Below, one piece after another: positions 2,156-60,093 of a stretch of DNA of 64,000 nucleotides. A program made the translations under genes and the position numbers. The DNA is taken from the NCBI GenBank assembly GCA_964464375.1, contig CAYXFU010000016.1, positions 15,074-79,073 of the forward strand, read 5' to 3'. Position 1 is the first letter of the stretch. Each line of letters starts with the position of its first letter. This DNA is from an uncultured Hyphomicrobiales bacterium (GTDB taxonomy: Bacteria; Bacteroidota; Ignavibacteria; Kapaibacteriales; UBA2268). The notes under the pieces are model-generated. The model saw nothing but the letters and a program-made list of their open reading frames with translations. It did no database searches and had not been told where the DNA came from.

Positions 2156-2239
2156 TTATATCTTTATAAACTTCCCTACTTTATCCCCAATTCGGACAAT
2201 ATACATGCCCGGAGCAAAGCCGGAAACATCAGGAATTTT
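2156..2239 (-). pseudogene. Orphan 28-codon 3' fragment of a T9SS C-terminal domain (..KIPDVSGFAPGMYIVRIGDKVGKFIKI*), no upstream gene body; overlaps the antitoxin stop in another frame
   Basis: reverse-strand translation matches the conserved CTD ending GMYFVRIGDKVGKF(V/I)K(L/I) of four full-length genes in this window. Confidence 0.6.
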
Positions 2240-2513
2240 TAAAAAGTACTTCAGGATTCCTTTCTGCAATCAAAAGAAGTACATTAGCAGGACCTGTTGG
2301 TTTTCTTCTGCCTTGTTCCCAGTTTTTTAAGGTACCAACACTTATACCGAGAAGATCAGCAAATTTATCCTGAGATAGATTGTGTTTCAGTCTTATTTCT
2401 TTTATTTCATTAGATTTTATCTCAAATCTTCTAGAAGGCTGGATTTCTTTTTTTAATATTTTACCACCTTCATGAATGCTTTGGACAAGATCATCGAACA
2501 TTTCTTTTTTCAT
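2229..2513 (-). CDS. HTH XRE-family antitoxin (HigA-like)
   Basis: LSQDKFADLLGISVGTLKNWEQGRRKPTGPA helix-turn-helix; 1-nt overlap with the upstream toxin gene. Confidence 0.7.
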   Translation of the reverse strand: MKKEMFDDLVQSIHEGGKILKKEIQPSRRFEIKSNEIKEIRLKHNLSQDKFADLLGISVGTLKNWEQGRRKPTGPANVLLLIAERNPEVLFKNS

Positions 2514-2839
2514 TATGAGAATTCCTCTTCAATAATTTTACTCAGTATTTTAATTTGATTGGGAGATAAATCGTCCCGCTCAGATTTTGAATAAGCATAT
2601 AATAGTAAAATTGTGTCTTTCATATCGACCCAAAAATAAATAATTCTTATTCCTCCACTTTTGCCTTTTGATTTGGTTTTCCATCTGATTTTTCTCAATC
2701 CACTTGACCCCTTAATAACCTTACCAAAAGCCGGATCGTTTGCCAGAAAATTTTGAAAATCCCTATATTCTTCACTATCTAGTAGAACAAGAATTTGCTT
2801 AGTAAATATTTTTGTCTCTACAATTATCATGTAAGTCAT
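2513..2839 (-). CDS. RelE/ParE-superfamily toxin (HigB/Gp49-like)
   Basis: ~108 aa; GKSGGIRIIYFW..LLLYAYSKSERDDLSPNQIKIL resembles the phage Gp49-like/HigB family; toxin-first order typical of HigBA. Confidence 0.6.
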   Translation of the reverse strand: MTYMIIVETKIFTKQILVLLDSEEYRDFQNFLANDPAFGKVIKGSSGLRKIRWKTKSKGKSGGIRIIYFWVDMKDTILLLYAYSKSERDDLSPNQIKILSKIIEEEFS

Positions 2840-2858: not shown

Positions 2859-4763
2859 TTATTTAATTTTCACAAATTTCCCGACTTTATCTCCAATCCG
2901 CACAAAATACATCCCAGTAGTTAGAGAAGTGACATTGATTTGTAGGGGTTCAAAATTTTGAACCCCTACAGTCATTACAGTTTGACCGAATACATTGAAG
3001 ATACAGATACCCTCAGATGGACTCCACTTGGCAAGTGGAGCCCATCTTCTCATATCGATTTCTACGAAATCTGATGCTGGATTGGGTGAAAGAATAAAAG
3101 ACTCTGCACTTTTGATATCCGATACATCTGTGATTAAATGAATAGATAATCTGGCTCTTTGAGGTGTCTTACATTCAGTTGTTAAACTTTGTGCTTCAAT
3201 ATAAACAACTGTATCTTTATAAACATATAATGAGAAATAATTTCTTGCTGACTGAAGCAGATTACCACCAACAGGTGAATCATACAGATAAAATGTTGAA
3301 TTTTTGGGAGACAAAGGTATTATTGAAATGTCCTGTTTTTTAATAAGCACAGTATCATTTACTAATACAGGTATTCCAGGATACACTTTAATAGATGTTT
3401 GATTTTCTTCCCCGATTGAAACAGGGTCGGTACTCCTAACTCTGATTTTGTAACTCTCACCTTCTGTAACATCTGAAGGTATTCCTACCTTAATTTTGCC
3501 TTGATAAATACTTTTGCTTTTACCTATAATTTTGACATTTGATGACCATGAACCGTTTGTGTCTGACAATTCTGCAATAAATTCATTTCCTGTTTTATAT
3601 AGTATATAAGTTTTGAAAGCCAGATCAAAGCTATCTCCAGGGCAAAATTGAAGTTTCATTGGCTTGGGGTCATCTGTATTAATTGTTAGCTTTTTGTTCC
3701 TGTAATAAATAATATAAAATTCTTTTATTGTTGTATCACTAATTACAAATTGATGTCTTGAAGGCTGGATTTGTGCTATTTCCCTCATGTCTGATTTGAA
3801 TTTGGAATTTGAATCAAGACTTTCATATAATAAAAATGTTGAATTTTGTGGGAAATTAATATCTTCATATTCTAATTTCAGTGGATAATCTGTTGCCTTA
3901 GAAAAGAACTTTACATGATAAATAAGAGGTGTAGATTCGTTTTTAAATTCTCTGATATCTCTAGAATTTGAATATGGTTTCTCGTCATTAGGGGCAATAT
4001 CGTATATTCCGTATTCTAAAGTATATGGAAGACTATCTATATAAAACCTGGCTTGAAAATTACGCATAATATAGTCAAAAGGACCTTCAGCATAACATGT
4101 ATCAGCATTCATACTTGCTCTGTAATGTGATCCAAATATCAGATTTGTTGTATCTATATTTTTTGAAACTAAAAATAACTCAATACCGGGTTTTGAAGTT
4201 GAATCAAACCATTCATAAGGATTATAGAAAATCCAAATCGGTACATCAACATTGACATAACCGCTGTCATTTAATTCTTTTGCAGTAAATAATAAATTTG
4301 CTGTATAATAGCCGGGTTTCATTGTTTTTGGAGGGATAAATTTCAAATCCAAATCTAAATAATTACCTTTTGTTAGGTTGAAAACATTACCACTAGTTAC
4401 ATAATTTGGAAAGGGATTCTGCTTTCCGGCTCCGGCAACTGATTTGAATACCAAGTATGGCTGATCGGAGCTAATCAGCATTGATTCGATCTTGGATGTA
4501 TCAGTTTTCAAGCTGATATTCATTATGCCGGAATGGGTATTACCTGTTCCTGAATCGGATGAAAATGGATTCCTGATTGAATAAGAATAAAGAGAGTTCT
4601 TCATTGTCGTTGGCAACCAACCAGTTTTTCTGTCAATGTTAAACATTAATTCTGCATTTGATGAGATTTTAGCCGAATTGTTATCCATTGCAGTAATAGA
4701 TTGAGCTGATGTGAGAGCATATCCCAGTAGGGTGACAATAACTATTAAGTATTTCATCTTCAT
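2859..4763 (-). CDS. Secreted protein with T9SS C-terminal sorting domain
   Basis: signal peptide; C-terminus SPNPASDFVEIDMRRWAPLAKWSPSEGICIFNVFGQ..GMYFVRIGDKVGKFVKIK. Confidence 0.6.
   Translation of the reverse strand: MKMKYLIVIVTLLGYALTSAQSITAMDNNSAKISSNAELMFNIDRKTGWLPTTMKNSLYSYSIRNPFSSDSGTGNTHSGIMNISLKTDTSKIESMLISSDQPYLVFKSVAGAGKQNPFPNYVTSGNVFNLTKGNYLDLDLKFIPPKTMKPGYYTANLLFTAKELNDSGYVNVDVPIWIFYNPYEWFDSTSKPGIELFLVSKNIDTTNLIFGSHYRASMNADTCYAEGPFDYIMRNFQARFYIDSLPYTLEYGIYDIAPNDEKPYSNSRDIREFKNESTPLIYHVKFFSKATDYPLKLEYEDINFPQNSTFLLYESLDSNSKFKSDMREIAQIQPSRHQFVISDTTIKEFYIIYYRNKKLTINTDDPKPMKLQFCPGDSFDLAFKTYILYKTGNEFIAELSDTNGSWSSNVKIIGKSKSIYQGKIKVGIPSDVTEGESYKIRVRSTDPVSIGEENQTSIKVYPGIPVLVNDTVLIKKQDISIIPLSPKNSTFYLYDSPVGGNLLQSARNYFSLYVYKDTVVYIEAQSLTTECKTPQRARLSIHLITDVSDIKSAESFILSPNPASDFVEIDMRRWAPLAKWSPSEGICIFNVFGQTVMTVGVQNFEPLQINVTSLTTGMYFVRIGDKVGKFVKIK
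3019..3043. repeat. In-frame 25-nt palindrome ggactccacttggcaagtggagccc inside the CTD coding region (encodes WAPLAKWSP); identical copy at 53907..53931
   Basis: palindrome seen directly; same sequence at the same CTD position in a second gene. Confidence 0.7.
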
Positions 4764-4774
4764 TTTATCCCATT

Positions 4775-5563
4775 TTACAATTTTATAAATTTCCCAACTT
4801 TATCCCCAATTCTCACAAAATACATCCCCGGAGGCAAACTGGAGATATCGATTCTTACTCCCTCCCTGCTCGCGGGGAGGGTTGGGGTGGGGTTAGGTGT
4901 GGCCTGTATTTCTCCCAGCACATTATATATACTCACGTCGCTTTGTAGGGGCGAACGGCCGTTCGCCCCTACGGATATTTCTATGAAATCTGTAGTTGGA
5001 TTAGGCGATACTTCAAAATCTTCTTTATTTTCTGGATTTTTTGATGGAACGTCCAAATTAGTATCCTCGTATCTTCTTAGATAATTGAAATTTGTAACAA
5101 GGCTTACATGTCCTATCTTATTTTCAACTGAATCTATGTTAGAATAATTCATCAGTCTTAGAAGCAAAACTCGTGGTAAAAATTTGGTGGTATCGGGTTC
5201 TTGAGGTAAATACTCCCTAAACCAAAATGTTCCATAAAGCGATTCAAAATGCTGAAATTCATTTTTTGTATTTAAATAGGTTGTAAGAATATCATGCCAT
5301 GTATATTCTATTATTGTGTCTTTTGGATAAATTCCAGATCTAGGAATAACATTATACTGAAATTCAACTCGAAAAATTTGTTTGGCATATAATTGTCCAA
5401 ATGTCGGTGACCAGTAACAGCTATCAACTTTGACCGAATCGGGATTTTGAAATCCCATCTTTTGATGCTTAAGTAGTTTTAGGCAACTGTCTGGTACTTG
5501 TGCATAATTTGCACCCAAACCAATAAAACTAAAATAAAGAAACATAAAGAATAATCTTTTCAT
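4775..5563 (-). CDS. Secreted protein with T9SS C-terminal sorting domain
   Basis: signal peptide MKRLFFMFLYFSFIGLGANYAQ; C-terminus SPNPTTDFIEISVGANGRSPLQSDVSIYNVLGEI..GMYFVRIGDKVGKFIKL. Confidence 0.6.
   Translation of the reverse strand: MKRLFFMFLYFSFIGLGANYAQVPDSCLKLLKHQKMGFQNPDSVKVDSCYWSPTFGQLYAKQIFRVEFQYNVIPRSGIYPKDTIIEYTWHDILTTYLNTKNEFQHFESLYGTFWFREYLPQEPDTTKFLPRVLLLRLMNYSNIDSVENKIGHVSLVTNFNYLRRYEDTNLDVPSKNPENKEDFEVSPNPTTDFIEISVGANGRSPLQSDVSIYNVLGEIQATPNPTPTLPASREGVRIDISSLPPGMYFVRIGDKVGKFIKL
4858..4881. repeat. In-frame GC hairpin ccctccctgctcgcggggaggg at a second variable site of the CTD (between NVLGEI and IDISSL)
   Basis: inverted repeat seen directly; the analogous site in the 53712 gene and the 52735 fragment carries a different hairpin, cctctcctttccaaggagggg. 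Confidence 0.55.
4945..4972. repeat. Perfect 28-nt palindrome gtaggggcgaacggccgttcgcccctac, in-frame in the CTD (encodes VGANGRSPL); related copies at 23153..23180 and 52927..52954
   Basis: perfect palindrome seen directly; recurs in orphan CTD copies. Confidence 0.75.
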
Positions 5564-11011: not shown

Positions 11012-11090
11012 ATCGCCGCTTTTCGCTTTAAAAGCCTGTTGTTTGTCCTAGACCAATTCGCACTCAAACATATAATTTAAATACAAAGTT

Positions 11091-11155
11091 GTCATTCCTG
11101 CACATGCAGGAATCTCGTAAAGTTAGAGAGATTCCGGGACAAGCCCGGAATGACA
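11091..11155. repeat. 65-nt hairpin repeat bounded by GTCATTC...GAATGAC (attcctgcacatgcaggaat + ttccgggacaagcccggaa)
   Basis: inverted termini and internal palindromes; member of a dispersed repeat superfamily. Confidence 0.6.
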
Positions 11156-11414
11156 CGATGATATTATTTTTCATCTATGTTATCATCTTGGTATCGGACT
11201 CAGAAATTCGTACAATTTCAGTCTAATCTAATATAATCGACAATATAAGGAATATATTGAGAGAGTGTGGAAAAAAAATCAGAATTTTTTGAATAATTTA
11301 ACCAAATTGTTCTATTGTGAATGGTTAGATGGGATTGCATCTAAAATGGATAAATATTAAACCCAGATAGTGCATTGGAACGTTTTCTATTCTTTGAAAA
11401 CGCTGTTCTGTCAT

Positions 11415-11460
11415 GTCATTCCTGCAATCACAAAGTAACAGCGAAGCTAATGCAGGAATC
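11415..11460. repeat. Partial copy of the same repeat family (gtcattcctgca...tgcaggaatc)
   Basis: shared terminus and stem sequence. Confidence 0.5.
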
Positions 11461-11581
11461 TTTTTTTGGTAAGAAAAGCATAGATTCCCGCCTTGTCTGG
11501 AATGTCATAATCAATAAATTGCAACGCCTGTATTAGCCCCCTTTTTTCAAAGGAAGTTTGGGGGTTTCTCCGGAATAATTC

Positions 11582-23008: not shown

Positions 23009-23190
23009 CTAAAGCTTCACAAACTTCCCGACTCTCTCCCCAATCCTCAAAAAATACATACCCGGAGCTAAGCCTGAAACATCGACTCGTTTGGGCAATT
23101 CATGAATTGCCCCTACAGACAATACAGTTTGACCATAAACATTGATTATTTTGTAAGGGCGAACGGCCGTTCGCCCCTACGAAAATTTGT
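23009..23190 (-). pseudogene. Decayed tandem copy of the CTD 3' end of the adjacent 23361..24602 gene (..VGANGRSPLQ, frameshift, NVYGQTVLSVGAIHELPKRVDVSGLAPGMYFLRIGERVGKFVKL*)
   Basis: two-frame translation; no start codon or gene body; contains palindrome 23153..23180. Confidence 0.6.
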
Positions 23191-23264
23191 TTAGATTTAT
23201 TTTCCGTTTTCTACACACAGGTCGCTACTCCGTAGCTGAATACAAAGTACATCTATTGAACGTT

Positions 23265-23288
23265 GTCATACCTGCGTATGCAGGTATC
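23265..23288. repeat. Small hairpin of the repeat superfamily (gtcatacctgcgtatgcaggtatc)
   Basis: palindrome with GTCAT terminus. Confidence 0.45.
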
Positions 23289-23360
23289 TTTTTCCTTTGT
23301 TTGAATTGTATTCATCATGCCTTTAATCCCATAAATCCCATAAATCCCAGTTCAGACAAT

Positions 23361-24602
23361 TTATAACTTCACGAATTTACCGACTCGATCCCCAATCCTC
23401 ACAAAATACATCCCCGGAGCTAAACCGGAAATGTCTATCCGTAGGGGTAATTCATGAATTTCCCCAACAGACAATACAGTTTGACCATAAACATTGAAGA
23501 TTTTGAATTCGCTTTGTTCGGACACGGCACGCCGTGTCCCTACGGATATTTCAATGAAATCGGATGCGGGATTGGGAGAAATAGAAAAATTAAAGTCGTT
23601 AATTGTTTCTTGAATACCAGTTATACTTTTTAAACTGATTAGACTTATATATTCAGAATTACTTATAACTAAATAATTGCTATCTGATGTAAACTTAGCA
23701 TATAAAGCTCTTAGACTTGTTGATGCGATAACAGTACCATCATTAATATCCCATATTAAAATAGGATCTAAACTCCAAAATACACCTGCAACAATAAATC
23801 TATTATTAGGTGATACAGATAATGAATATACTGCGCTACTTGTTTTGATATTTCTTAATAGAGACCTGCTCTTTGTATCACATACATTAACTCCACTTGT
23901 ATTGTTATATTTAAAATAATCGCAAACAAATTTAGAGCCGTCATTATTAAATGTAGCATAATATGATGAACCCTCGTCTTTAATTACGATGGAATCAGTT
24001 TGTAGATCGGTTAATGAGGCAGGAGTAAATCTTGTTGCTACGGCTAAATATCTATCATCTTTAGAAAATTCGATAAAATTGGGTTGTTGTCTTTCCATCC
24101 ATTCACCTATCAAGCATGGATATTGTTTATAGATTTCATCAGTTTGGAAATTTCTTATAATTACGCCTTTCTCCATTAAAGAATAAGCTAAATACTTATT
24201 ATCATGGGAGAGCGCAGCATAAAATGATCCACTAGATAAATTAACCTTTATTTCTTTAACTAAAACCCATGTTTTCGTATCCCAAACAGTTAATTTACCA
24301 TAGTTTCCATCATCAGAACCAGTAGCAATGAGAAATGAACCGTCATAAGAATATTTTACAGCAAATAATGTATAATCACAGACTTTTATTTGCTTGAATA
24401 TAGTTCCAGTTAAAAGATTAACAATTCTTATTGTTCCATCTTTTCCGCTTAATGAAATAAATTTATTGTCTGGTGAGACGTCGAAATAAGAAGAAATACC
24501 AAATTCATTTCTCCAAACCACACTAGAGTCAAGTGATATTTGGCTCTTTACATTTGCAATAAAGAAGATGAAGAAGAGTAGAATAAGAATGAATTGTTTC
24601 AT
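23361..24602 (-). CDS. WD40/beta-propeller-like secreted protein with T9SS CTD
   Basis: signal peptide; C-terminus SPNPASDFIEISVGTRRAVSEQ..GMYFVRIGDRVGKFVKL; in-frame palindrome ggacacggcacgccgtgtcc at 23516..23535. Confidence 0.6.
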   Translation of the reverse strand: MKQFILILLFFIFFIANVKSQISLDSSVVWRNEFGISSYFDVSPDNKFISLSGKDGTIRIVNLLTGTIFKQIKVCDYTLFAVKYSYDGSFLIATGSDDGNYGKLTVWDTKTWVLVKEIKVNLSSGSFYAALSHDNKYLAYSLMEKGVIIRNFQTDEIYKQYPCLIGEWMERQQPNFIEFSKDDRYLAVATRFTPASLTDLQTDSIVIKDEGSSYYATFNNDGSKFVCDYFKYNNTSGVNVCDTKSRSLLRNIKTSSAVYSLSVSPNNRFIVAGVFWSLDPILIWDINDGTVIASTSLRALYAKFTSDSNYLVISNSEYISLISLKSITGIQETINDFNFSISPNPASDFIEISVGTRRAVSEQSEFKIFNVYGQTVLSVGEIHELPLRIDISGLAPGMYFVRIGDRVGKFVKL

Positions 24603-26828: not shown

Positions 26829-27116
26829 CTAATACCACTCTTCACTTAAATCATTCCAATTAGGATTATTACCTTCAATCAATTTAATTTTTTTTACTCT
26901 TGAATATCCTTTAATATGCTTTTCTCTGACAATAGCAGATTCAATATTTCCACAGTCTTCAAGGAATACTAGTTGATGAACAGAATATTTGGAAGTAAAA
27001 CCTTCAAATAAATTATTTTTATGTTCATAGACTCTTTTTAATAAATTAGATGTTACACCTGTGTAAAGTGTTCCATTTTTTTGCGAAGCCATAATATATA
27101 CAAACCCGTTTTTCAT
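26829..27116 (-). CDS. GIY-YIG nuclease-superfamily small protein
   Basis: GFVYIMASQKNGTLYTGVTSNLLKRVYEH (GIY..YIG motif), 95 aa. Confidence 0.7.
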   Translation of the reverse strand: MKNGFVYIMASQKNGTLYTGVTSNLLKRVYEHKNNLFEGFTSKYSVHQLVFLEDCGNIESAIVREKHIKGYSRVKKIKLIEGNNPNWNDLSEEWY

Positions 27117-36410: not shown

Positions 36411-36516
36411 CATGAATACTATATTGCCACATTTTCTACAAATCCTTATGGGATTATTATAAAACTTCCGAGAAAACCCAAACCCCTTTGAAAAAGGGGG
36501 CTAATACATTCTTTGT

Positions 36517-36672
36517 AAATCAATGAATAGCCACGAGCTTTAGCTCGTGGTGAAAAGAAAAAATGATTTTATTTGGGGATTTATCCCCACAAAAAGAGTG
36601 ATTTCGACTAAAGTCAATGAAAATAATTAGGAATCTTCCACGAGCTAAAGCTCGTGGCTATTGATTCCATCA
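36517..36672. mobile_element. MITE-like element: ~33-nt terminal inverted repeats (each containing the palindrome ccacgagctttagctcgtgg) flanking a ~90-nt AT-rich core with hairpin ggggatttatcccc
   Basis: caatgaatagccacgagctttagctcgtgg at 36517.. and its reverse complement at 36640..36672; no ORF. Confidence 0.4.
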
Positions 36673-37017
36673 TATTTTATGAGAACGCACCAGCCCTTCT
36701 TGTTCCAAGGGGGATTAAGGGGGTTTCCGTTATTCATTTTTATATTCAAATATCGCTTTCATTAGCTTTTCACCGCTAATAGATATCTTAATCACTTCCA
36801 TGGAAGAATGAGGACGATGTAAACAGGTGCTTTTTTCATGATATTACCGATCTTAAATTTATATGAACAATTTAACATCAAAGAACTTGGTGGTGGCGAA
36901 TTCCTATCGCCACCACCATCTATCATCGCCAAACACTTTATTTGGATTCTGCTGTCAATTGTCTTCTTTTGAAATGCTAATCCGGAGTTTGCATAGCATA
37001 TTCTTGCCATATTCAAT

Positions 37018-45279: not shown

Positions 45280-45305
45280 TAATAGTGTCTTATTTTGATG
45301 GACTC

Positions 45306-45336
45306 AACTTCGGAAGTAGAGTCCATCTTGCATGGG
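45306..45336. terminator. Hairpin gatggactc..gagtccatc between convergent genes
   Basis: 9-bp stem; no clear T-tract. Confidence 0.35.
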
Positions 45337-49666: not shown

Positions 49667-49984
49667 ATGGTTAAAATCCCTGAAGAAATAGCAGATAAAA
49701 TCAAAAGATTTATTGATTTGCTCGAGAAATCTCAAATTCACATCGAGCAGGCAATTCTTTTTGGATCTTATGCTAACGGCACCCAGAATAAATGGAGTGA
49801 CATCGATCTGGCTTTAGTCTCTTCGAATTTCGAAGGGAATAGATACTACGATTTAGACAAACTGACAGATGCTCAATTCATGGTTGATACTGATATATCG
49901 CCATTACCCTACCGACCGGAAGATTTCACAAATGATGATCTATTCGTAAGAGAAATTAACAAAAGTGGAATCCGAATCGTATAA
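49667..49984 (+). CDS. Nucleotidyltransferase-domain protein (MNT-type antitoxin-like), no adjacent HEPN partner
   Basis: LFGSYANGTQNKWSDIDLALV (GS-x9-DxD). Confidence 0.7.
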   Translation: MVKIPEEIADKIKRFIDLLEKSQIHIEQAILFGSYANGTQNKWSDIDLALVSSNFEGNRYYDLDKLTDAQFMVDTDISPLPYRPEDFTNDDLFVREINKSGIRIV

Positions 49985-50002: not shown

Positions 50003-50212
50003 TTATTTAATATTTTTAAATTCTTCGAGACTAATACCTGCTTGTTTTAAGATTGCTCTGAATGTTCCTTCGGGGATGTCTTTTGAATGAATGGATACGT
50101 AAGTTTGTCTACCGTCGTTATGACGAAGAATAACATGAGAACCGGATTGCCTTTTCTTCTCAAATCCAATTTTTAGTAATTTAGCTAGGACTTCAATAGA
50201 TTTATACGGCAT
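50003..50212 (-). CDS. hicA: HicA-family mRNA interferase toxin
   Basis: YKSIEVLAKLLKIGFEKKRQSGSHVILRH.. Confidence 0.7.
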   Translation of the reverse strand: MPYKSIEVLAKLLKIGFEKKRQSGSHVILRHNDGRQTYVSIHSKDIPEGTFRAILKQAGISLEEFKNIK

Positions 50213-50441
50213 ACTCCTCTAAATCCAGGACTGAATAAAATGTTTCGTTAGGAATTGGAACTGGCTCATGATTCTCTCTTTTCTCTTCGATCCATAATGA
50301 AATCAGATCCTTCGCAGCTTCTAATGCTCCTTCAATTCCTTCACCATGGGTAGTTAGTCCTAAAGTAGGCACATGTGCATAAAAATATCCATCAGGAAAC
50401 TCTCCTTCGGATATTTTTTCTAATAATATTCCATATTTCAT
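50202..50441 (-). CDS. hicB: HicB-family antitoxin (UPF0150-like)
   Basis: YFYAHVPTLGLTTHGEGIEGALEAAKD; overlaps hicA by 11 nt. Confidence 0.6.
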   Translation of the reverse strand: MKYGILLEKISEGEFPDGYFYAHVPTLGLTTHGEGIEGALEAAKDLISLWIEEKRENHEPVPIPNETFYSVLDLEEYAV

Positions 50442-52680: not shown

Positions 52681-52734
52681 TTTTAATCCCTTATTTTTAT
52701 ATAATTAATTTAAGAACTCACAGTTCAGACTACT

Positions 52735-52988
52735 TTACAGCTTTATAAACTTTCCGACTCTGTCCCCAGTCCTCACAAAATACATTCCAGGAGCCAAACC
52801 GGAGACATCGATTCTTGCTTTTTCCTCTCCTTTCCAAGGAGGGGTGTCACGATTGCGAAGCAACGGCGAAGCCCACTCCGGGGTGGTCTTGATTTCTCCA
52901 AGAACATTATATATCATCACCTCGCTTGTAAGGGCGAAGGACAGTTCGCCCCTACGGAAATTTCTATAAAATAAGAACTAGGATTGGG
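52735..52988 (-). pseudogene. Stand-alone frameshifted T9SS CTD cassette (..TPNPSSYFIEISVGANCPSPLQAR* then MMIYNVLGEIKTTPEWASPLL..GMYFVRTGDRVGKFIKL)
   Basis: two-frame translation gives a complete ~80-aa CTD with no gene body; ~150 nt near-identical to the 3' end of the 53712 gene; palindrome at 52927..52954. Confidence 0.6.
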
Positions 52989-52996
52989 AGTGACAA

Positions 52997-53308
52997 TTAA
53001 TTAATATCAATTCCGGTTCTCAGAATTTCCTGAATAAAAGGATCCCCTTTATAAAAATATTCAGTTGGGAATGTTTGTGCATCAATATCGAGATAGTTTT
53101 TTGTTATAGGTGCTATCATTAGAGCATTTTCGAATCTGTCACTCGTGAATTGACTTGAAACTAATGCCAGATCGATGTCTGTATTATCATTGTTTATATC
53201 TTTGGCAAGAGAACCAAAAAGAATTACCCGATCGAAAACCAAGTTGATTTTTCGGCATTCATCGATAAACTCCTTTGTTATATCTATTGCATTTTGTCTA
53301 GTAAGCAT
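52997..53308 (-). CDS. Nucleotidyltransferase (MNT antitoxin)
   Basis: ILFGSLAKDINNDNTDIDLALV. Confidence 0.7.
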   Translation of the reverse strand: MLTRQNAIDITKEFIDECRKINLVFDRVILFGSLAKDINNDNTDIDLALVSSQFTSDRFENALMIAPITKNYLDIDAQTFPTEYFYKGDPFIQEILRTGIDIN

Positions 53309-53676
53309 TTTCTGATTTCACCAGCTTTTTGAATTAATTCTTTTGTTTTTTCTGTGGTTGTTGTTTTGTAAATATTGCCCAAATAGTCGGGATATCGACC
53401 TTCCAGATTATAGACGTTGAATGCCTTTAGAAAAACAATCATATCGTCATCAAATTCAATATTAGTAAAAGATAAAAGTTTCACAATATCATGCGTTTTG
53501 GGAGGATAAATTTCATCAGTAAATCGTACATATATTGCTTTACTGATTTTTTCCATTGTCAAATGAACAAAAAATAATGCTTGTACAAATTTCCCGCCAT
53601 CCAATAATAAGGTTACTGATTCCCAGTCGCTTTGAGCAGAATCAATCCAATACGCAATATGTTCCTGTTTTGTCAT
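53284..53676 (-). CDS. HEPN-domain protein (toxin partner of MNT)
   Basis: size and helical pattern; 25-nt overlap with the NTase gene. Confidence 0.6.
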   Translation of the reverse strand: MTKQEHIAYWIDSAQSDWESVTLLLDGGKFVQALFFVHLTMEKISKAIYVRFTDEIYPPKTHDIVKLLSFTNIEFDDDMIVFLKAFNVYNLEGRYPDYLGNIYKTTTTEKTKELIQKAGEIRKCLLDKMQ

Positions 53677-53711
53677 ACTCGGTATACGAATATTTTCAAC
53701 TTATATTATTT

Positions 53712-54950
53712 TCAATATTTTATAAACTTCCAGATCTTATCCCCAATCCTCACGAAATACATACCCGGAGCCAAACCGGAGACATCGATTCTTGCTTTTT
53801 CCTCTCCTTTCCAAGGAGGGGTGTCACGATTGCGAAGCAACGGCGAAGCCCACTGCGGGGTGGTCTTGATTTCTCCAAGAACATTAAAGATTCTTATCTC
53901 AACAGATGGACTCCACTTGGCAAGTGGAGCCCATCTTGCCAAGTCGATTTCTATAAAGTCCGTGGCGGGATTAGGGAAAATATAATTATCTTTAACATTA
54001 ATATTATCATCAAATCCAGATTGTAGTGGTGAAGTTGCAACAACCAGATTATCGATCCACATAGTCTGTTCAATGGGAGAGCCATCGCCAATATAGGGAG
54101 CAATCAGGAACTGATTGAGCTTCATATCGGGGAATTGTGCTGTTCTGAATATAATATTATCATAACTTATCAAAATCTTGGAATCGTACCAGTATCTGAT
54201 CTTCCCGTCAGTAACTCCTTTACCGCCTTGAATACTATTCAGCTTAAAATATGCTTCCACATGATGCCAGTCATTCTTGTAGTTGAGTCCCTGTGCGTCT
54301 GTGAAATAAACTGTGTCGGCATCCCATATTCTTGCACTATAATAGTATCCACCGCCATAGTTGAAGCAATCGCTTCTATCGAAACCACCCTCGATACCAT
54401 TGCATGCGGCTATGGAACGATTCTCGGAGAACTTATAGCTATTAAAATCTCCATCGCAGCCGATAAAATTACCGTTGTTCTGCAAGATACACGTCTGATC
54501 TACATTCTTGCTGTCCTGAAGTGCAAGCAGGGGCTTACCCTCATTCTGTTCGATATATAAAGTTAGATGAGTGATTGCCGGACCGACATATTTATCATCA
54601 GCATTTGTCATAATATTAAATTCATGAGGATGATACGGCTTGTTCGAGCCTTCCCAGTTTGCACTATACTTCACCCAATAGCTTACGTAGAGTTCATCTG
54701 TTTCGGTGAACAGATGACGGCTGGGGGTCCCTGCGGCGCATCCTCTCTGCCCCTGCAGGAATTTACACTCGAAGCAGGCAGTACTCCCATTGATATGCTC
54801 AGCCGTTGAAATTGTCCCTTTAGACGCATCGTACCACCCACGCAAAGCAAAGTCATTATCATCAAAATTCTCAATAAAGAGAATGGTTTGAGCTAATAGA
54901 GCTACAAAACCAAAAGTGCTTATAAACAATATGATGAATAATGTTCTCAT
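53712..54950 (-). CDS. Secreted protein with T9SS CTD carrying two in-frame hairpins (WAPLAKWSP palindrome 53907..53931; cctctcctttccaaggagggg 53801..53821)
   Basis: signal peptide; C-terminus FPNPATDFIEIDLARWAPLAKWSPS..NVLGEIKTTPQWASPLLRNRDTPPWKGEEKARIDVSGLAPGMYFVRIGDKIWKFIKY. Confidence 0.55.
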   Translation of the reverse strand: MRTLFIILFISTFGFVALLAQTILFIENFDDNDFALRGWYDASKGTISTAEHINGSTACFECKFLQGQRGCAAGTPSRHLFTETDELYVSYWVKYSANWEGSNKPYHPHEFNIMTNADDKYVGPAITHLTLYIEQNEGKPLLALQDSKNVDQTCILQNNGNFIGCDGDFNSYKFSENRSIAACNGIEGGFDRSDCFNYGGGYYYSARIWDADTVYFTDAQGLNYKNDWHHVEAYFKLNSIQGGKGVTDGKIRYWYDSKILISYDNIIFRTAQFPDMKLNQFLIAPYIGDGSPIEQTMWIDNLVVATSPLQSGFDDNINVKDNYIFPNPATDFIEIDLARWAPLAKWSPSVEIRIFNVLGEIKTTPQWASPLLRNRDTPPWKGEEKARIDVSGLAPGMYFVRIGDKIWKFIKY

Positions 54951-54963
54951 AGGCTTTTCAACT

Positions 54964-57900
54964 TTATAACTTTATGAACTTTTGAACTGATGTTGCAATC
55001 CTAACAAAATAGACTCCTGACACTAATCCAGAGACATCGATCTTAACTCCCTCTACAAGAATGGAGAGGGTCGTGGTGAGGTTGATCTTTTTCCCATAAA
55101 TATTATAAATTTCAAAACTCAAACCTTCATCAATCTCGAATCCCTTCGCAAATACTATATTCAGCTCATCTATCACAGGATTTTCTGTAATTGTAAATTC
55201 AACAGGATTTATAAGTTGTATTCTGGCTATGTTAGGTTGACAGATGCCGGATACTTTGATGCTTCCATTTGTGATTTTGTTGATTATATCCTTGTCGCTC
55301 CATTCAAAATTTATTATTTCAATGGGTGTTATATCTCTATCCCCGATGAAGATCTGACCACAGATTTCACCGATTTTGGTTGGATTTTCTGTTAATTGAA
55401 TGTTGTCTCCGATCAGTTCTATTGTTCGTTTGCCGGATACTATTGTACCTTTGTTGGTTGTAGGGTTCATAACGGAAGCATCGAGTGTGATTACTGCTTT
55501 GTAGCTTACTTTGTCATCGTAAGGTTCGTTATCATCCTTCTTAGCCATTAGCGGAATGCAGAAATTCAGTTGTCCTATTTTTGCAGACATATCAGGTATC
55601 CAGACTGATGTGCTGATCTGTGTTTTGATGCTGTCTGACGCTGAGCCTTTGACTGCAATTAATAAAGACTGAACACACGGCTCGGTTATATCAATTATTA
55701 GTGAGTCCAGATATGATTTTGAATCAGTTGGCAGATAATCTATTTCGATATTTATTGATTCATTTTGAGCGAGTGTTTTTGGTGGCACAGGTGTTGGCTT
55801 AGCGGTGAAAGTATTTGCTTCAAGTCCCTTTATCTTTATGCTGAAGATTGTGACCTGTTGTGTATTTGTGTTCTTCAGTTCAATATTCTTTTTGCTTGTG
55901 GAGTTAACTTTCCTAGTACCGAAGTCAATATCAGTCAGCTGAATGACATCTGGTTTAAATTCAGTTATGGTGGTTGTTGCAGTTCCTTCGCATCCGTTAG
56001 TGTCGGTAACCGTCACGGAATAAATACCCGGATTTGATATAGAAATTGATTTTGTCGTTTCAGCTGTGTTCCAGAGATATGATTGAAAATCGTTTTGGAC
56101 AAGCAGGATGCTTGTCCTACCGGGACATAGGAATAAATCGCCTGATATTATCGGCTTTGGTTCTGCAACCTGAATTATATCAATTATTTCCGATGTTCCT
56201 TCGCATCCACCGTCATCTTTAACGTGAACTGAGTACTTTCCGGGTTTTGTGATCGTTATTGATTTTGTTGTTTCACCTGTGTTCCAGAGGTAAGATGTAT
56301 AGTTGTACTCTGTAGTTAGGTTCAAAGATCCATTTGGACAGAGAATTCCATTGTTACTAATTATCACAATTGGTTTCAGACTATCTACCAGTGTTACTTT
56401 CACTGTATCCGATATTGCTTTGCATCCGTTTATGTCAGTAACTTCTACATAGTAGTTTCCGGGTAGATTAACCGTTATGTTGTCTTCTGTGTTGCCTGTA
56501 CTCCAATTGTATGCGGTATATTTATCTTCTGTCGAGATGTTTAGTTTTGAGCCTGCACATAGTTCGGGGTTACGGCTCAGTTTAAGCTTTGGTGATATTT
56601 TGGGATAACTTTGAACGACTAAAGTGTCATATACCTCACAGCTACCGTTAATGCTTACCTTAACCCAATAAGTACCTGCTTTGTCTATGTCGATTTCTGA
56701 TGCTGTACTTCCATTTGACCACAAATATTTGTATGCATCATTTGGTGGCATTACTTTCAGTTTAGAGTTAATACCATCACATATCAAAGAATCACCCGAT
56801 ATATCAATGGTTATTGCTGGAAGCACATTTACCTCCACAGTGTCGCATCTGCTGCAGCCTGCATTATCAATTACGCAAAGAATATATTGGAATTTCCCGT
56901 TTGTATCCAAAGTTAGTTTGGGCGTTATAGAATTTGGATTGTCGAGTCCCTTAGACGGTGTCCATAAAATCGATTGAATTGGCTGAACACCACCGCTCAA
57001 CTGTCCTTTCAAATCGATTGTCGCATTGGTGCAGATATCAATATCAGGACCCGCAGAAATATTAATCTTTTGATGAATTCTAACAAAAAGCGAATCTGAT
57101 TTTGAACATCCGGCAGAATCAGTTACAGTTAATATATATTTCGTTGTCTTTTCCGGTGAAACGAGTGTGATTGCTGAATCAGGATCAACTATTCCTTCAG
57201 TTGGATTCCATTTATAGCGATATGGCGGAGTTCCTGATTTTGCTAAATTTCCTATAAATATCGATGAGCCGTAACAGATTGTTGTATCCTTGCCTGCCTC
57301 TATTTTAGGACCGATAACCTTTGCGACAAGGACTACAACCTTATTCCTGCCGCAACTATCGTAAACATCAATAAACTGAGTAAATGTTCCGGTATCTGCC
57401 GGAGCTGTAAATCTTACTTTTATTGCTTTAGTTTCATTAGCATTGAATTGTACAGAAGAAGGATTGCCCGATACGTAAGAAAACGGTGATTTTAAATCAT
57501 TAAAAGAAAATTTTGTACCAATAGTAGATTTGTTTTCTATATTAAAAATTGTGTCTTTTACAGAATTAGGGCATACAATTCCAAAATCAAGAGTATTAAA
57601 TCTCAATCCGCTTAACTTAAAAGATATACTGTCTTTAACTGCATTTAATGCAATACTAAATGGACTTTTAGGGGAATTATTTATAAGGTTTAAATTTGCA
57701 GATTTATTCCCCGATATTGATGACTTAAAACTAATTACAAACTTAGCAGAATCACCATACGGTATGATAATTGGCAATGCTGGTGAAATCAGAGAAAAGT
57801 CTGTAAAGTTAATTCCAGATGGATTTGAGTTTGATATTATTAGATCACAACCACCGGTATTCTTTACCCAAATAGAATCAAGCTCTGAATTTTCACAAAC

Positions 57901-60093
57901 TAAATTTTTAAATCTAAGATTTTTATTGGAAGAAATTCCAGGAGTAAGATATATTTGACTGAATTTTGTTACAAAACCATCATGTTGACCTTTTAGGGAA
58001 GTTTGAAATGCACCTGCTGTAACTGGATAATCATGGGAAAGGGTTGAGCCAGTGATATAAATATCATTCTTATTATCAATACAAATAGATGTTCCATACT
58101 CTCTATATGAACCAGAAATAAATGTTGAATAACTGAATTTTGAATCATTAAAATTCAATTTAAATAAAAAACAATCAGAGTAATAAGTCAATGGAGTAGT
58201 TTGATAAGCACATTGAATTATTGGGAAATCGTCAGAGATTGTATATCCTGTGATATATGGATTTTTCTCTGAATCCAATGCAATTGACAACCCATAATCA
58301 TCTTTTGAGCCACCTACAAAAGAAGAATATAAAATACTTGTGCCGGTATTATTGAATTTGGTGATAAAAGCTTCATTCATTTTCTTTTGTGTGGGTTGAA
58401 ATGAACCAGGTGTAGTTGGAAAATTAGGAGAAGCGGTACTTCCGGTGACAAAGGCATTTCCATTATTATCAACAACTACACCTGAAATTTGATCTGTACC
58501 TGAGCCACCAAGATAAGATGAATACAAAGCATCTGTGCCAGTTTGATTTAATTTAGTAATGAATCCGTCATGAGACCCACCGGCATAATTTATCTGAAAA
58601 GCTCCGGTTGTAGTAGGATAATCAGTAGTAGAAGTGTAGCCAGCAATATAAGCACATCCAAACGAATCAATTGTTAAGCTCAGCACAGATAGCCAATTTA
58701 ACAAAGATACCCCTAATTCTCCACCTAGAAATGTTGAATATATTAAACTTGTGCCTGTTGAATTACATTTAACTACGAACAAATCTGAAGAATTTCTTAA
58801 TGTTGTACGATAAGCACCGGAAGTAGTTGGAAAATCACTTGATAATGTTCCTCCTGTTATATATGAATTACCTGCAATATCTACAGATATGGAATTTCCC
58901 CAATCATCATTCAAACCGCCTAAAAAGGTTGAAAAAAGTAATGTAGAACCAGTAGAATTAAGCTTAGTAATAAATGCTTCAGTACCATTCCTTGTTTGGC
59001 GTAAAGCACCATTTGTTAAGGGGTAATTATCCGACCAGGTCGTACCAGTCATGTAAACATTTAAATTAGAATCGATTGCTAAACCTGCTCCCTCTTCTAC
59101 ATCATTACCACCGATAAATGTTGAAAATATAGGATATGTACCATTTACATTCATTTTTGTCACAAAATAATCAGCTATTACTCCTTTTGATGTATCAATA
59201 TTCGTTTGATATGCTCCTACTGTTGTTGGAAAATCTTTTGAATCGCTCTCTCCGCAAATATAAGAATTTGAATTTCTATCCACTACAATCCCATGTGGAA
59301 AATCTGGTCCAGATCCACCTAAATATGTAGAATACACCATTGGGTCAATTATCAAAGCTAAATCATGATTATAATCATCGATTTTGAAAGTGGCGGTTCC
59401 ATCGTAATTTAAAATAAAGCGGCAATCAACTTTGGTGCCTTCAGCAAGACTAAGCAATGCTTTGGGTTGATAAGCATAGATTTTATTATTGAGAACATTT
59501 CCTATGCTTGTACCAATAACCAATTCACCATTTTCATTGATTGCAAGGTTGTTCTGTCCTTCAAATTTCATCTTAATTTGAGATATATCTGCACCGGGAC
59601 TGACAATATAATCATATCTCAAACCAGCTAAAGTTTGTCCTTCTGTAGTTTTTGTATCAAAATAATATCTAATATCTATACCCTGATAAGCATCCTTTAC
59701 GATTACTTCTTTATACAGAGGCACAAATGAAGCCCATTTTGTAGAATCATTACCAATAAAGTAGTTATAATAAGTCTCCAGTTTTTCTTTGGTTAGATTA
59801 GTGCAGCTCTCATTTAAACCATCATATTTTAACCCAACAACATGACCTTTCAAAAACTTGTCTTCTATCTTGTTAAAGTCATAAACAACGCCGCTTTTGG
59901 TTATCCAGGCATTTATTCCATTCATCTTAGCAAGGAATTGTACTTCAGGATTCCACTGTCCTTTGTTTTCAATGAAGGAATTTGAATTGTTGATCTTTGA
60001 CAGGGTAGTCTCATCCATGCCGGTAAGCACAAGAGATGGATAGATGCAAATTAACAGGCAAATAAACAGATTTCTCATTTTCCGCCTCAGCAA
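54964..60093 (-). CDS. Giant (1709 aa) secreted adhesin-like protein: SBBP beta-propeller repeats + multiple Ig/PKD-like domains + T9SS CTD
   Basis: repeated ..GGSGxDxxxGIAVD..NVYVTGxTxSxDFP.. units; Cys-containing Ig-like repeats; C-terminus LVSGVYFVRIATSVQKFIKL. Confidence 0.7.
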   Translation of the reverse strand: MLRRKMRNLFICLLICIYPSLVLTGMDETTLSKINNSNSFIENKGQWNPEVQFLAKMNGINAWITKSGVVYDFNKIEDKFLKGHVVGLKYDGLNESCTNLTKEKLETYYNYFIGNDSTKWASFVPLYKEVIVKDAYQGIDIRYYFDTKTTEGQTLAGLRYDYIVSPGADISQIKMKFEGQNNLAINENGELVIGTSIGNVLNNKIYAYQPKALLSLAEGTKVDCRFILNYDGTATFKIDDYNHDLALIIDPMVYSTYLGGSGPDFPHGIVVDRNSNSYICGESDSKDFPTTVGAYQTNIDTSKGVIADYFVTKMNVNGTYPIFSTFIGGNDVEEGAGLAIDSNLNVYMTGTTWSDNYPLTNGALRQTRNGTEAFITKLNSTGSTLLFSTFLGGLNDDWGNSISVDIAGNSYITGGTLSSDFPTTSGAYRTTLRNSSDLFVVKCNSTGTSLIYSTFLGGELGVSLLNWLSVLSLTIDSFGCAYIAGYTSTTDYPTTTGAFQINYAGGSHDGFITKLNQTGTDALYSSYLGGSGTDQISGVVVDNNGNAFVTGSTASPNFPTTPGSFQPTQKKMNEAFITKFNNTGTSILYSSFVGGSKDDYGLSIALDSEKNPYITGYTISDDFPIIQCAYQTTPLTYYSDCFLFKLNFNDSKFSYSTFISGSYREYGTSICIDNKNDIYITGSTLSHDYPVTAGAFQTSLKGQHDGFVTKFSQIYLTPGISSNKNLRFKNLVCENSELDSIWVKNTGGCDLIISNSNPSGINFTDFSLISPALPIIIPYGDSAKFVISFKSSISGNKSANLNLINNSPKSPFSIALNAVKDSISFKLSGLRFNTLDFGIVCPNSVKDTIFNIENKSTIGTKFSFNDLKSPFSYVSGNPSSVQFNANETKAIKVRFTAPADTGTFTQFIDVYDSCGRNKVVVLVAKVIGPKIEAGKDTTICYGSSIFIGNLAKSGTPPYRYKWNPTEGIVDPDSAITLVSPEKTTKYILTVTDSAGCSKSDSLFVRIHQKINISAGPDIDICTNATIDLKGQLSGGVQPIQSILWTPSKGLDNPNSITPKLTLDTNGKFQYILCVIDNAGCSRCDTVEVNVLPAITIDISGDSLICDGINSKLKVMPPNDAYKYLWSNGSTASEIDIDKAGTYWVKVSINGSCEVYDTLVVQSYPKISPKLKLSRNPELCAGSKLNISTEDKYTAYNWSTGNTEDNITVNLPGNYYVEVTDINGCKAISDTVKVTLVDSLKPIVIISNNGILCPNGSLNLTTEYNYTSYLWNTGETTKSITITKPGKYSVHVKDDGGCEGTSEIIDIIQVAEPKPIISGDLFLCPGRTSILLVQNDFQSYLWNTAETTKSISISNPGIYSVTVTDTNGCEGTATTTITEFKPDVIQLTDIDFGTRKVNSTSKKNIELKNTNTQQVTIFSIKIKGLEANTFTAKPTPVPPKTLAQNESINIEIDYLPTDSKSYLDSLIIDITEPCVQSLLIAVKGSASDSIKTQISTSVWIPDMSAKIGQLNFCIPLMAKKDDNEPYDDKVSYKAVITLDASVMNPTTNKGTIVSGKRTIELIGDNIQLTENPTKIGEICGQIFIGDRDITPIEIINFEWSDKDIINKITNGSIKVSGICQPNIARIQLINPVEFTITENPVIDELNIVFAKGFEIDEGLSFEIYNIYGKKINLTTTLSILVEGVKIDVSGLVSGVYFVRIATSVQKFIKL

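Follow-up and report, generated by a model that had tools for sequence, protein, structure and literature searches.

How does a secretion signal come to lie in a bacterial genome with no protein attached to it? The question is raised by a 64,000-nucleotide (nt) stretch of contig CAYXFU010000016.1 (assembly GCA_964464375.1, an uncultured bacterium), referred to here as the window, whose minus strand carries at 52735..52990 a full-length type-A C-terminal domain (CTD) as used by type IX secretion systems (T9SS), frameshifted and body-less. This orphan CTD lies downstream of a T9SS cargo gene with a related CTD of its own, and genes for a HEPN-domain protein and a minimal nucleotidyltransferase (MNT) occupy the space between them. 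The orphan is probably the downstream member of a direct CTD repeat pair that brackets an inserted HEPN-MNT cassette, and hence an insertion scar.

The identity of the orphan is clear at the DNA level, where a profile built from the CTDs of the window matched it with E = 6e-59. One minus-strand frame (52735..52997) reads IVTPNPSSYFIEISVGANCPSPLQAR followed by two stop codons, its CTD part being TPNPSSYFIEISVGANCPSPLQ, and a second frame ends in MIYNVLGEIKTTPEWASPLLRNRDTPPWKGEEKARIDVSGLAPGMYFVRTGDRVGKFIKL and a stop codon; the open reading frame (ORF) of that second frame, 52735..52920, encodes 61 amino acids (aa) that read (M)IYNVLGEIKTTPEWASPLLRNRDTPPWKGEEKARIDVSGLAPGMYFVRTGDRVGKFIKL before the stop. 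The domain is split between the two frames by a 1-nt deletion at ~52925..52927 on the minus strand, where a base is missing from a run of A residues, giving ACAAGCGA in the orphan; the CTDs of genes 4775 and 23361 have ACAAAGCGA instead. With the frame corrected, the 82-aa domain scores 31.3 bits against PF18962 (cut-off 27) and 28.3 bits against TIGR04183 (cut-off 23), and the 61-aa ORF alone scores 20.4 bits, under the cut-off of 23. The stop codon of the MNT gene at 52997 lies 8 nt upstream of the orphan, no continuous ORF spans the domain, and read-through translation from MNT into the orphan was ruled out by frame. The first-pass annotation of this DNA, which described a complete, frameshifted CTD of ~80 aa without a protein body, is borne out on all of these points.

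T9SS cargo proteins have a signal peptide and a body, with the CTD at their C-terminal end. The orphan cannot be a T9SS substrate because its ORF has neither an N-terminal body nor a signal peptide. A scan for promoters and terminators returned nothing above chance that is relevant to the orphan, and its RNA folding score (z = -2.2) is due to the known hairpins and is not diagnostic. The orphan is a pseudogene fragment or relic, neither a gene nor a regulatory device, and is most likely a recombination scar.

The origin of the fragment may be read from its mosaic relationship with the neighboring gene 53712..54950 (minus strand), a 412-aa T9SS cargo gene with a polysaccharide-lyase-like body (the match to PF14099 is weak) and a complete type-A CTD at 53712..53976 (PF18962, 35 bits; DNA profile match 53976..53714). 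Orphan and gene share 168 nt at 93.5% identity within a 182-nt direct repeat with a spacing of 977 nt, and their similarity stops at the stop codon. Within the repeat, a core of 120 nt is identical at 119/120 positions between the orphan (52790..52909, minus strand) and the gene (53767..53886, minus strand), where it runs from NVLGEIK through the TTPQWASPLLRNRDTPPWKGEEK loop to ARIDVSGLAP and holds the hairpin CCTCTCCTTTCCAAGGAGGGG at 53801..53821. Heterology bounds the core on both sides, in the form of the hypervariable loop 1 on its upstream side and of a diverged 3′ end on its downstream side. The 5′ part of the orphan (52910..52990) matches the gene's CTD at 42/91 positions (46%) and the 3′ part (52735..52789) at 40/55 (73%), and Fisher tests separate the core from the 5′ flank with p = 2e-21 and from the 3′ flank with p = 8e-8. 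The earlier description of the last ~150 nt of the gene as nearly identical to the orphan is therefore correct for the core and incorrect for the flanks, and the 120-nt identical tract is read as an exchange or conversion tract.

The two diverged 3′ ends appear to have different histories. The last 55 nt of the gene's CTD (53712..53766, minus strand; GMYFVRIGDKIWKFIKY and stop codon), 73% identical to the orphan's equivalent, are where homology to the upstream side of a HEPN-MNT pair in another organism begins (see below), and this end of the gene may have arrived with the cassette. The orphan's own 3′ end (52735..52789, minus strand; GMYFVRTGDRVGKFIKL and stop codon) would be the resident, displaced CTD end, by analogy with two contigs of other organisms, L013 and L030, in which the corresponding part of the orphan remains with its downstream flank. 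Its GDRV.KFIK ending resembles that of P0001, an orthologue of the 412-aa gene, which is weak evidence for a resident origin. Orthologues of this gene show body identities of up to 83-86% and have different or unrelated CTD loops. The 412-aa gene and a 413-aa gene were considered as paralogues, and this was rejected since their alignment is confined to their CTDs.

The gap between gene and orphan measures 723 nt and is filled by the HEPN and MNT genes. The first-pass annotation placed the orphan 0.8 kb from the gene; the gap is not empty but holds a gene pair that was overlooked. Following a 35-nt spacer from the CTD stop codon to the HEPN start (53677..53711, minus strand), the HEPN-domain protein (53284..53676, minus strand) has 130 aa, matches PF05168 with 56.2 bits, is the presumed toxin, and was found at the same locus in at least 10 contigs. 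The MNT protein (52997..53308, minus strand; 103 aa; PF01909, 28.5 bits) is the presumed antitoxin, and its gene overlaps that of HEPN by 25 nt. Against the NCBIfam model of MntA it scores 27.5 bits, under the equivalog cut-off of 60. Adjacent small HEPN and minimal nucleotidyltransferase genes are the arrangement of HEPN-MNT (type VII) toxin-antitoxin (TA) pairs. On reading the 130-aa HEPN protein, no Rx4-6H RNase motif was found, the nearest R..H having 10 residues between. The toxin activity of HEPN is thus unproven, and judging by its residues it may not be an active RNase toxin.

A duplicated domain in a metagenome assembly might result from a chimeric join at a repeat, and short-read Logan contigs do terminate at or inside the duplicated 120-nt core, as they would at any true repeat. 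The whole structure (1201 bp) is, on the other side, spanned by seven independent JGI assemblies at 99.9-100% identity, six of them identical and the seventh with one mismatch, and the unique flanks agree on both sides across assemblies. The structure is genuine and, in the population sampled, fixed; the probability of an assembly artefact is negligible.

The arrangement is not confined to one gene. Three orphans in the 64 kb share the same layout on the same strand, a CTD gene followed by an insert or gap and then by a CTD fragment, and of the five or six window genes whose CTDs belong to this DNA family, three have an orphan downstream. At two of the three sites a TA pair exactly fills the space between gene and orphan. 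At the first site, orphan 1 (2156..2239, minus strand; DNA profile match 2157..2230) comprises the last ~25 codons of a CTD (DVSGFAPGMYIVRIGDKVGKFIKI and stop codon) and starts at the antitoxin's stop codon. Between it and the CTD gene 2859..4763 lie a RelE-like toxin (2513..2839, minus strand; PF06296, 26.4 bits) and an XRE/NadS-type antitoxin (2229..2513, minus strand; PF01381, 43.3 bits; NF041265, 58.6 bits). An exact look-up of the RelE-like toxin returned this same locus alone. At the second site, orphan 2 (23009..23196, minus strand; profile match 23010..23196) extends from the loop-1 palindrome to the stop codon, beginning ~10 nt before the palindrome, and forms an 84% direct repeat with the CTD of gene 23361..24602, which lies 165 nt upstream with no gene between. 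The repeats at the three sites differ in length (84, 188, and 256 nt). The count of three orphan CTDs in 64 kb given by the first-pass annotation is upheld by the profile search, and so is its description of mosaics and recombination footprints, by the sharp identity breakpoints and by the layout at three window sites and in other organisms.

The gene-free spacer of the second site holds the palindrome acctgcatacgcaggt (23262-23285, reading PAYAGMT), of a widespread hairpin-repeat type, which may be a remnant of DNA that formerly intervened between gene and orphan. The motif GTCTGAACTG occurs ~10-20 nt past the stop codons of both the orphan at 52735..52990 (52715-52724) and gene 23361 (23343-23352); CTD homology therefore reaches slightly past the stop, as expected if the module spreads as DNA. 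The window also contains small genes of the addiction or selfish type without a CTD neighbor, namely HicA (50003-50212), HicB (50202-50441), and an MNT-like nucleotidyltransferase (49667-49984), and a stand-alone GIY-YIG nuclease of 95 aa at 26829-27116, likewise without a CTD neighbor.

Several orphans within 64 kb, each a promoterless partial homologue, and here one beside an expressed copy with a conversion-like identical tract, recall the silent donor cassettes proposed in the first-pass annotation, that is, a store of promoterless fragments that would supply CTD segments for copying into expressed genes and so vary them. This proposal is very improbable. There is at most one orphan per gene and no array, the orphan at 52735..52990 is frameshifted, and orphans 1 and 2 are 5′-truncated. 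The population check for switching of CTD ends, also suggested earlier, showed no variation among the seven assemblies. The CTD is, according to PMC4804311 and PMC4560394, a translocation signal that PorU removes after export. Variation in the CTD would have no obvious payoff, because the domain is cleaved off and would not reach the mature surface protein.

Related layouts were found in other organisms. A search with the 61-aa orphan ORF returned other short CTD ORFs, one of which pointed to L013, a contig of 100 kb from a related metagenome organism whose DNA matches to the window are CTDs only (70-88% identity). Within 10 kb this contig shows twice a CTD gene followed by a gene for a 121-aa DUF559 nuclease and then by an orphan CTD 3′ fragment. 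Between the two units, identity is ~99% over a span that begins in loop 2 of the upstream CTD, crosses the stop codon of that CTD and the DUF559 gene, and takes in the first ~60 nt of the orphan; past that point identity drops to the level of paralogues, and it is gone after the orphan's stop codon. Such a span indicates that a segment was copied from one cargo gene to another, its two ends both lying in CTD DNA. In L030 the same DUF559 gene, orphan, and downstream flank stand behind a third, different CTD gene. The DUF559 gene in L013 is flanked by perfect inverted repeats of 28 nt and 16 nt, of which the right-hand one reads in frame as CTD loop 2 (TTPSLCDTPPWKGGEK), and a related copy of it is the TTPQWASPLLRNRDTPPWKGEEK loop of the window core. 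The DUF559 unit could be a nuclease-bearing element resembling a miniature inverted-repeat transposable element (MITE) or an element of the homing type.

The DUF559 (Vsr-like endonuclease) gene, at L013 1564-2080, also occurs in L028 and L029, and its unit stands behind different CTD genes at least three times. In one of L028 and L029 a 914-aa CTD gene is intact, and in the other a 1-nt deletion immediately before PNP divides it in two (877 + 69 aa). This difference (~458 in L028) lies off any palindrome and reflects either polymorphism or an assembly error; it gives no support for hairpin-based phase variation, because the site is not at a palindrome.

The link between the HEPN-MNT pair and a CTD end recurs in a second organism. 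Contig L022 encodes a HEPN-MNT pair in a non-CTD neighborhood, beside a DUF1015 gene and the remnant of a Mu portal, and its HEPN shares 79% identity with that of the window. At ~30 nt upstream of the HEPN start codon (ATG) stands a CTD 3′ end without a body (ISFSPAGLYFVCVGDKVNKVLKIK and stop codon; DNA profile E = 0.009). The 124 nt upstream of both HEPN genes, including the spacer, give a collinear local alignment with a score of 30, compared with 16.6 ± 2.6 for shuffled sequences (2/2000 reach this score), and similarity falls to background farther upstream and downstream of the pair. The onset of this homology lies approximately where the 120-nt identical core of the window ends. The HEPN-MNT cassette thus seems to carry a CTD 3′ end along with it, on its 5′ side.

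Among the contexts of short CTD-only ORFs that were checked, P0127 in contig L039 is a real orphan. In L039 and L040, an orphan that begins, like window orphan 2, at the loop-1 palindrome comes within ~10 nt after a complete CTD gene, and in L039 no cassette lies between gene and orphan. This gene (1124 aa; orphan region 3600-3823 in L039, also in L040) ends in its own complete CTD of another type (...NLIIVK and stop codon), and the orphan starts at GTAGGGGCACGGTGTGCCGTGCCC. Other candidates were rejected: L013 5001..5210 and L014 550..768 are the frameshifted 3′ ends of large genes, and P0125 and P0133 are located at contig ends. A scan of genome contigs with HEPN yielded three distant relatives (37-46% identity), for which no same-strand CTD neighbor was found, and a scan of metagenome contigs yielded six loci, of which L022 alone was informative. 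In viral contigs the RelE-like toxin and HEPN had no matches, and DUF559 had four distant ones.

These observations can be accommodated by insertion through CTD DNA. In this lineage the CTD-coding module of ~230 bp is a dispersed DNA repeat, 70-90% identical between genes, with two variable loops encoded by GC-rich hairpins. Small selfish cassettes (HEPN-MNT, RelE/XRE, and the DUF559 nuclease in the relative) would move in physical linkage with a CTD 3′ end and, recombining within CTD DNA, would insert into the tail of a T9SS cargo gene. The host gene would then end in the incoming CTD 3′ end and remain secretion-competent, and the resident CTD, displaced beyond the cassette or duplicated, would lose its gene body and promoter and decay, with one frameshift so far in the orphan at 52735..52990. 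The direction of the event would accordingly run from a complete gene to a gene with a relic behind it, and the process would presumably depend on host recombination. Integration could be of the Campbell type, involving a circle of TA pair and CTD, or a double (RecA-type) exchange of a CTD-flanked segment. As a third route, homology could anchor one side while the other is joined illegitimately, an event that may in addition delete a former downstream gene; joins of this kind are described in PMC3240628. The three variants are indistinguishable with these data.

Simple decay offers a different account, in which a second T9SS cargo gene once stood downstream, lost its body when the TA pair landed, and acquired the 120-nt core by later gene conversion. 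Tandem CTD genes do exist in the window (54964..60093 beside 53712..54950, and 4775..5563 beside 2859..4763), the 5′ part of the orphan is unlike that of the gene and resembles the CTDs of other genes, and homology-anchored illegitimate integration typically deletes recipient DNA (PMC3240628). The deletion would, on the other hand, have to end within ~8 nt of the CTD start, with similar events at two other sites in 64 kb. Decay also leaves unexplained both the DUF559 unit copied en bloc with its boundaries inside CTDs and the CTD 3′ end attached to the HEPN-MNT pair of L022, and it is an unlikely explanation of the locus as a whole.

Cassette insertion through CTD DNA, the preferred explanation, has several points against it. 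No empty-site allele was found, a look-up of the DJ-1 neighbor having returned the same locus or contigs broken in the repeat, and P0001, the closest orthologue of the 412-aa gene, lacks synteny with the locus and differs from both CTD copies in its loops. The right-hand junction, in which the MNT stop codon is followed by 8 nt and then by PNP, is not explained by simple homologous exchange. Support from L022 is statistically modest, its locus has no CTD on the right side, and the distant HEPN homologues (34-49% identity) have no same-strand CTD neighbor. There is one copy of each cassette in the window, and their mobility is suggested by analogy with the DUF559 unit.

The part played by the hairpins deserves separate consideration. 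Every CTD of this DNA family has two variable loops that are encoded by GC-rich, often perfect or near-perfect palindromes, many of the form GTAGGGG...CCCCTAC, with inner sequences that vary from copy to copy and remain self-complementary. As described in the first-pass annotation, orphan and gene carry two palindrome types (VGAN and WAPLAKWSP). The loop-1 palindrome of the orphan, type A (GTAAGGGCGAA-N6-TTCGCCCCTAC; 52928..52955), is GTAG-tagged and imperfect, has 11-nt arms and a 6-nt loop, and reads VGANCPSPLQ; relatives occur at 4945..4972 and 23157..23176. That of the gene, type B (AGATGGACTCCACTTG/CAAGTGGAGCCCATCT; 53904..53936), has 16-nt arms that are 94% complementary and reads RWAPLAKWSPS, with a second copy at 3022..3040 in gene 2859..4763. 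Neither type was matched in shuffled sequences (0 matches). The CTD-loop palindromes of the window lie at 4945-4972, 23157-23176, 23520-23539, 23093-23112, 2951-2978, 3015-3047, 53904-53936, and 52928-52955, and 6 of the 13 perfect GC-rich palindromes of the 64 kb sit in the ~1.9 kb of CTD DNA (~3% of the window). In an AlphaFold model of the gene's CTD, the sister copy of the orphan (mean pLDDT 68.9, six strands), both palindrome-encoded segments fall between β-strands and are of low confidence (pLDDT 56-60).

GTAG REPs are defined by a GTAG tetranucleotide followed by a stem of 5-13 bp with a loop of 2-20 nt, and are occasionally intragenic (PMC3733652, Table 1 for the definition). They typically come in many copies per genome, mostly between genes, together with an associated RAYT gene. 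The window palindromes include sequences of this form, for example GTAGGGGCGAACGGCCGTTCGCCCCTAC (4945..4972) and the imperfect copy at 52928..52955. An intergenic hairpin at 45297-45331, between convergent genes, has outer arms (GATGGACTC...GAGTCCATC) that match the type-B palindrome, which places the same hairpin family in and outside coding DNA. Intergenic clusters of hairpin repeats at 36470-36920 and 11090-11570 contain CCACGAGCTTTAGCTCGTGG twice in opposite loop orientation, ccccctttgaaaaaggggg, and cattcctgca..tgcaggaatg types, and parts of these clusters match L013 2173-2263 at 97-100% identity.

The position of breakpoints and orphan ends relative to these hairpins varies. The first-pass annotation suggested recombination at the palindromes. 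At the orphan at 52735..52990 this does not hold, for its 5′ breakpoint (52909/52910) is ~18 nt downstream of the loop-1 palindrome and its 3′ breakpoint (~52790) is in ordinary CTD sequence. The idea fits better elsewhere: the loop-1 palindrome is no more than ~10 nt from the start of orphan 2 (23196) and of the L039 orphan, and the orphans linked to DUF559 have their start at the loop-2 hairpin element. Overall, the 5′ end coincides with a loop-1 hairpin in two cases and with the loop-2 hairpin element in the DUF559 orphans, whereas orphan 1 and the L022 fragment begin just past loop 2 and the orphan at 52735..52990 begins with the domain itself. This distribution hints that hairpins may be preferred break points, and the spread of 5′ ends fits no single site-specific enzyme.

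An enzyme that cuts the palindromes of the CTD loops, with cassettes inserted or copied at the breaks as in homing or site-specific insertion, is improbable, and less likely than decay. Candidates for such a nuclease or transposase would be a REP-associated Y1 transposase or the DUF559 endonuclease itself. The GTAG tags shared with REPs (PMC3733652), the L013 DUF559 gene lying between perfect 28-nt and 16-nt inverted repeats, with CTD loop 2 as the right one and a relative in the window core, and the several orphans that begin at a hairpin all agree with a mechanism of this type. They are set against orphan 5′ ends at four different CTD positions, core breakpoints of the orphan at 52735..52990 that are not at a palindrome, and window TA cassettes on which no terminal repeats were found. 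Among the 30 window ORFs scanned there was no transposase, integrase, or DUF559 gene, no RAYT, and no integrase of the IntI type, which together with attC sites would mark an integron gene cassette.

The orphan is of limited interest in itself as a relic and matters mainly because its layout is repeated behind other genes and in related bacteria. A genome can hold dozens to hundreds of T9SS cargo genes, all with the same ~80-aa tag. If the DNA of this tag acts as portable homology, TA and nuclease genes could spread within and between genomes without a recombinase of their own, and the mosaic CTDs and many short "hypothetical protein" CTD ORFs in metagenome annotations would be explained; annotators would also be warned that short CTD ORFs are relics. 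A broader proposal, offered tentatively and with less than even confidence, is that a guild of small selfish cassettes, comprising TA pairs and a DUF559 nuclease gene between inverted hairpin repeats, uses T9SS sorting-domain DNA as a multi-copy landing pad, each cassette bringing a replacement CTD end that spares secretion of the host protein. Loop hairpins would then be fragile or recognized start sites, and the orphans would be att-like scars of an undescribed form of cassette mobility in this Ignavibacteria/Bacteroidota-like lineage.

Several known systems resemble parts of this arrangement. Integrative elements that target the 3′ ends of genes (tRNA, tmRNA, and protein genes) bring a replacement 3′ end and leave att direct repeats. 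As with these elements, the target gene here stays intact and the insert is bordered on its far side by a partial copy of the gene end. Unlike them, no integrase is present among the scanned window ORFs, the length and position of the repeat vary between sites, and the "att" would be a multi-copy domain module common to many genes. GTAG REPs and the palindromic elements of Rickettsia (PMC3733652) likewise place short GC-rich GTAG palindromes in frame at positions that proteins tolerate, and related hairpins occur between genes (45297..45331 and 36470..36920 in the window). In contrast to them, the CTD palindromes occupy two fixed loop positions of one domain family, their inner sequence differs from copy to copy, and no RAYT is encoded among the scanned ORFs. 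Silent-cassette conversion in pilE/pilS shares promoterless partial copies, conserved blocks flanking variable blocks, and a conversion-like tract; it differs in that the varied region of the CTD is cleaved from the mature protein, there is no cassette array, and no switching was observed.

Orphan modules of Rhs and CdiA and displaced effector-immunity arrays of the type VI secretion system (PMC3967940; PMC5361080) offer a further likeness. In these, an incoming module recombines through a conserved stretch and brings a new end with one or more small companion genes, and the old end is left downstream, promoterless and retaining the conserved stretch. The orphan likewise shares a stretch with its upstream gene as a direct repeat, and a new end with companion genes is seen in L022 and in the DUF559 unit. 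The orphan has no toxin tip or cognate immunity gene and is a secretion tag alone, without a function of its own. The arrangement belongs neither to these systems nor to the integrative elements: the conserved stretch is a 3′-terminal secretion tag rather than an upstream core, the passengers are cytoplasmic TA or nuclease genes rather than secreted toxin tips and immunity genes, and no integrase is present among the scanned window ORFs. No report of CTD-flanked cassettes was found in the literature searched, and the recurrent layout is plausibly a new variant of cassette mobility.

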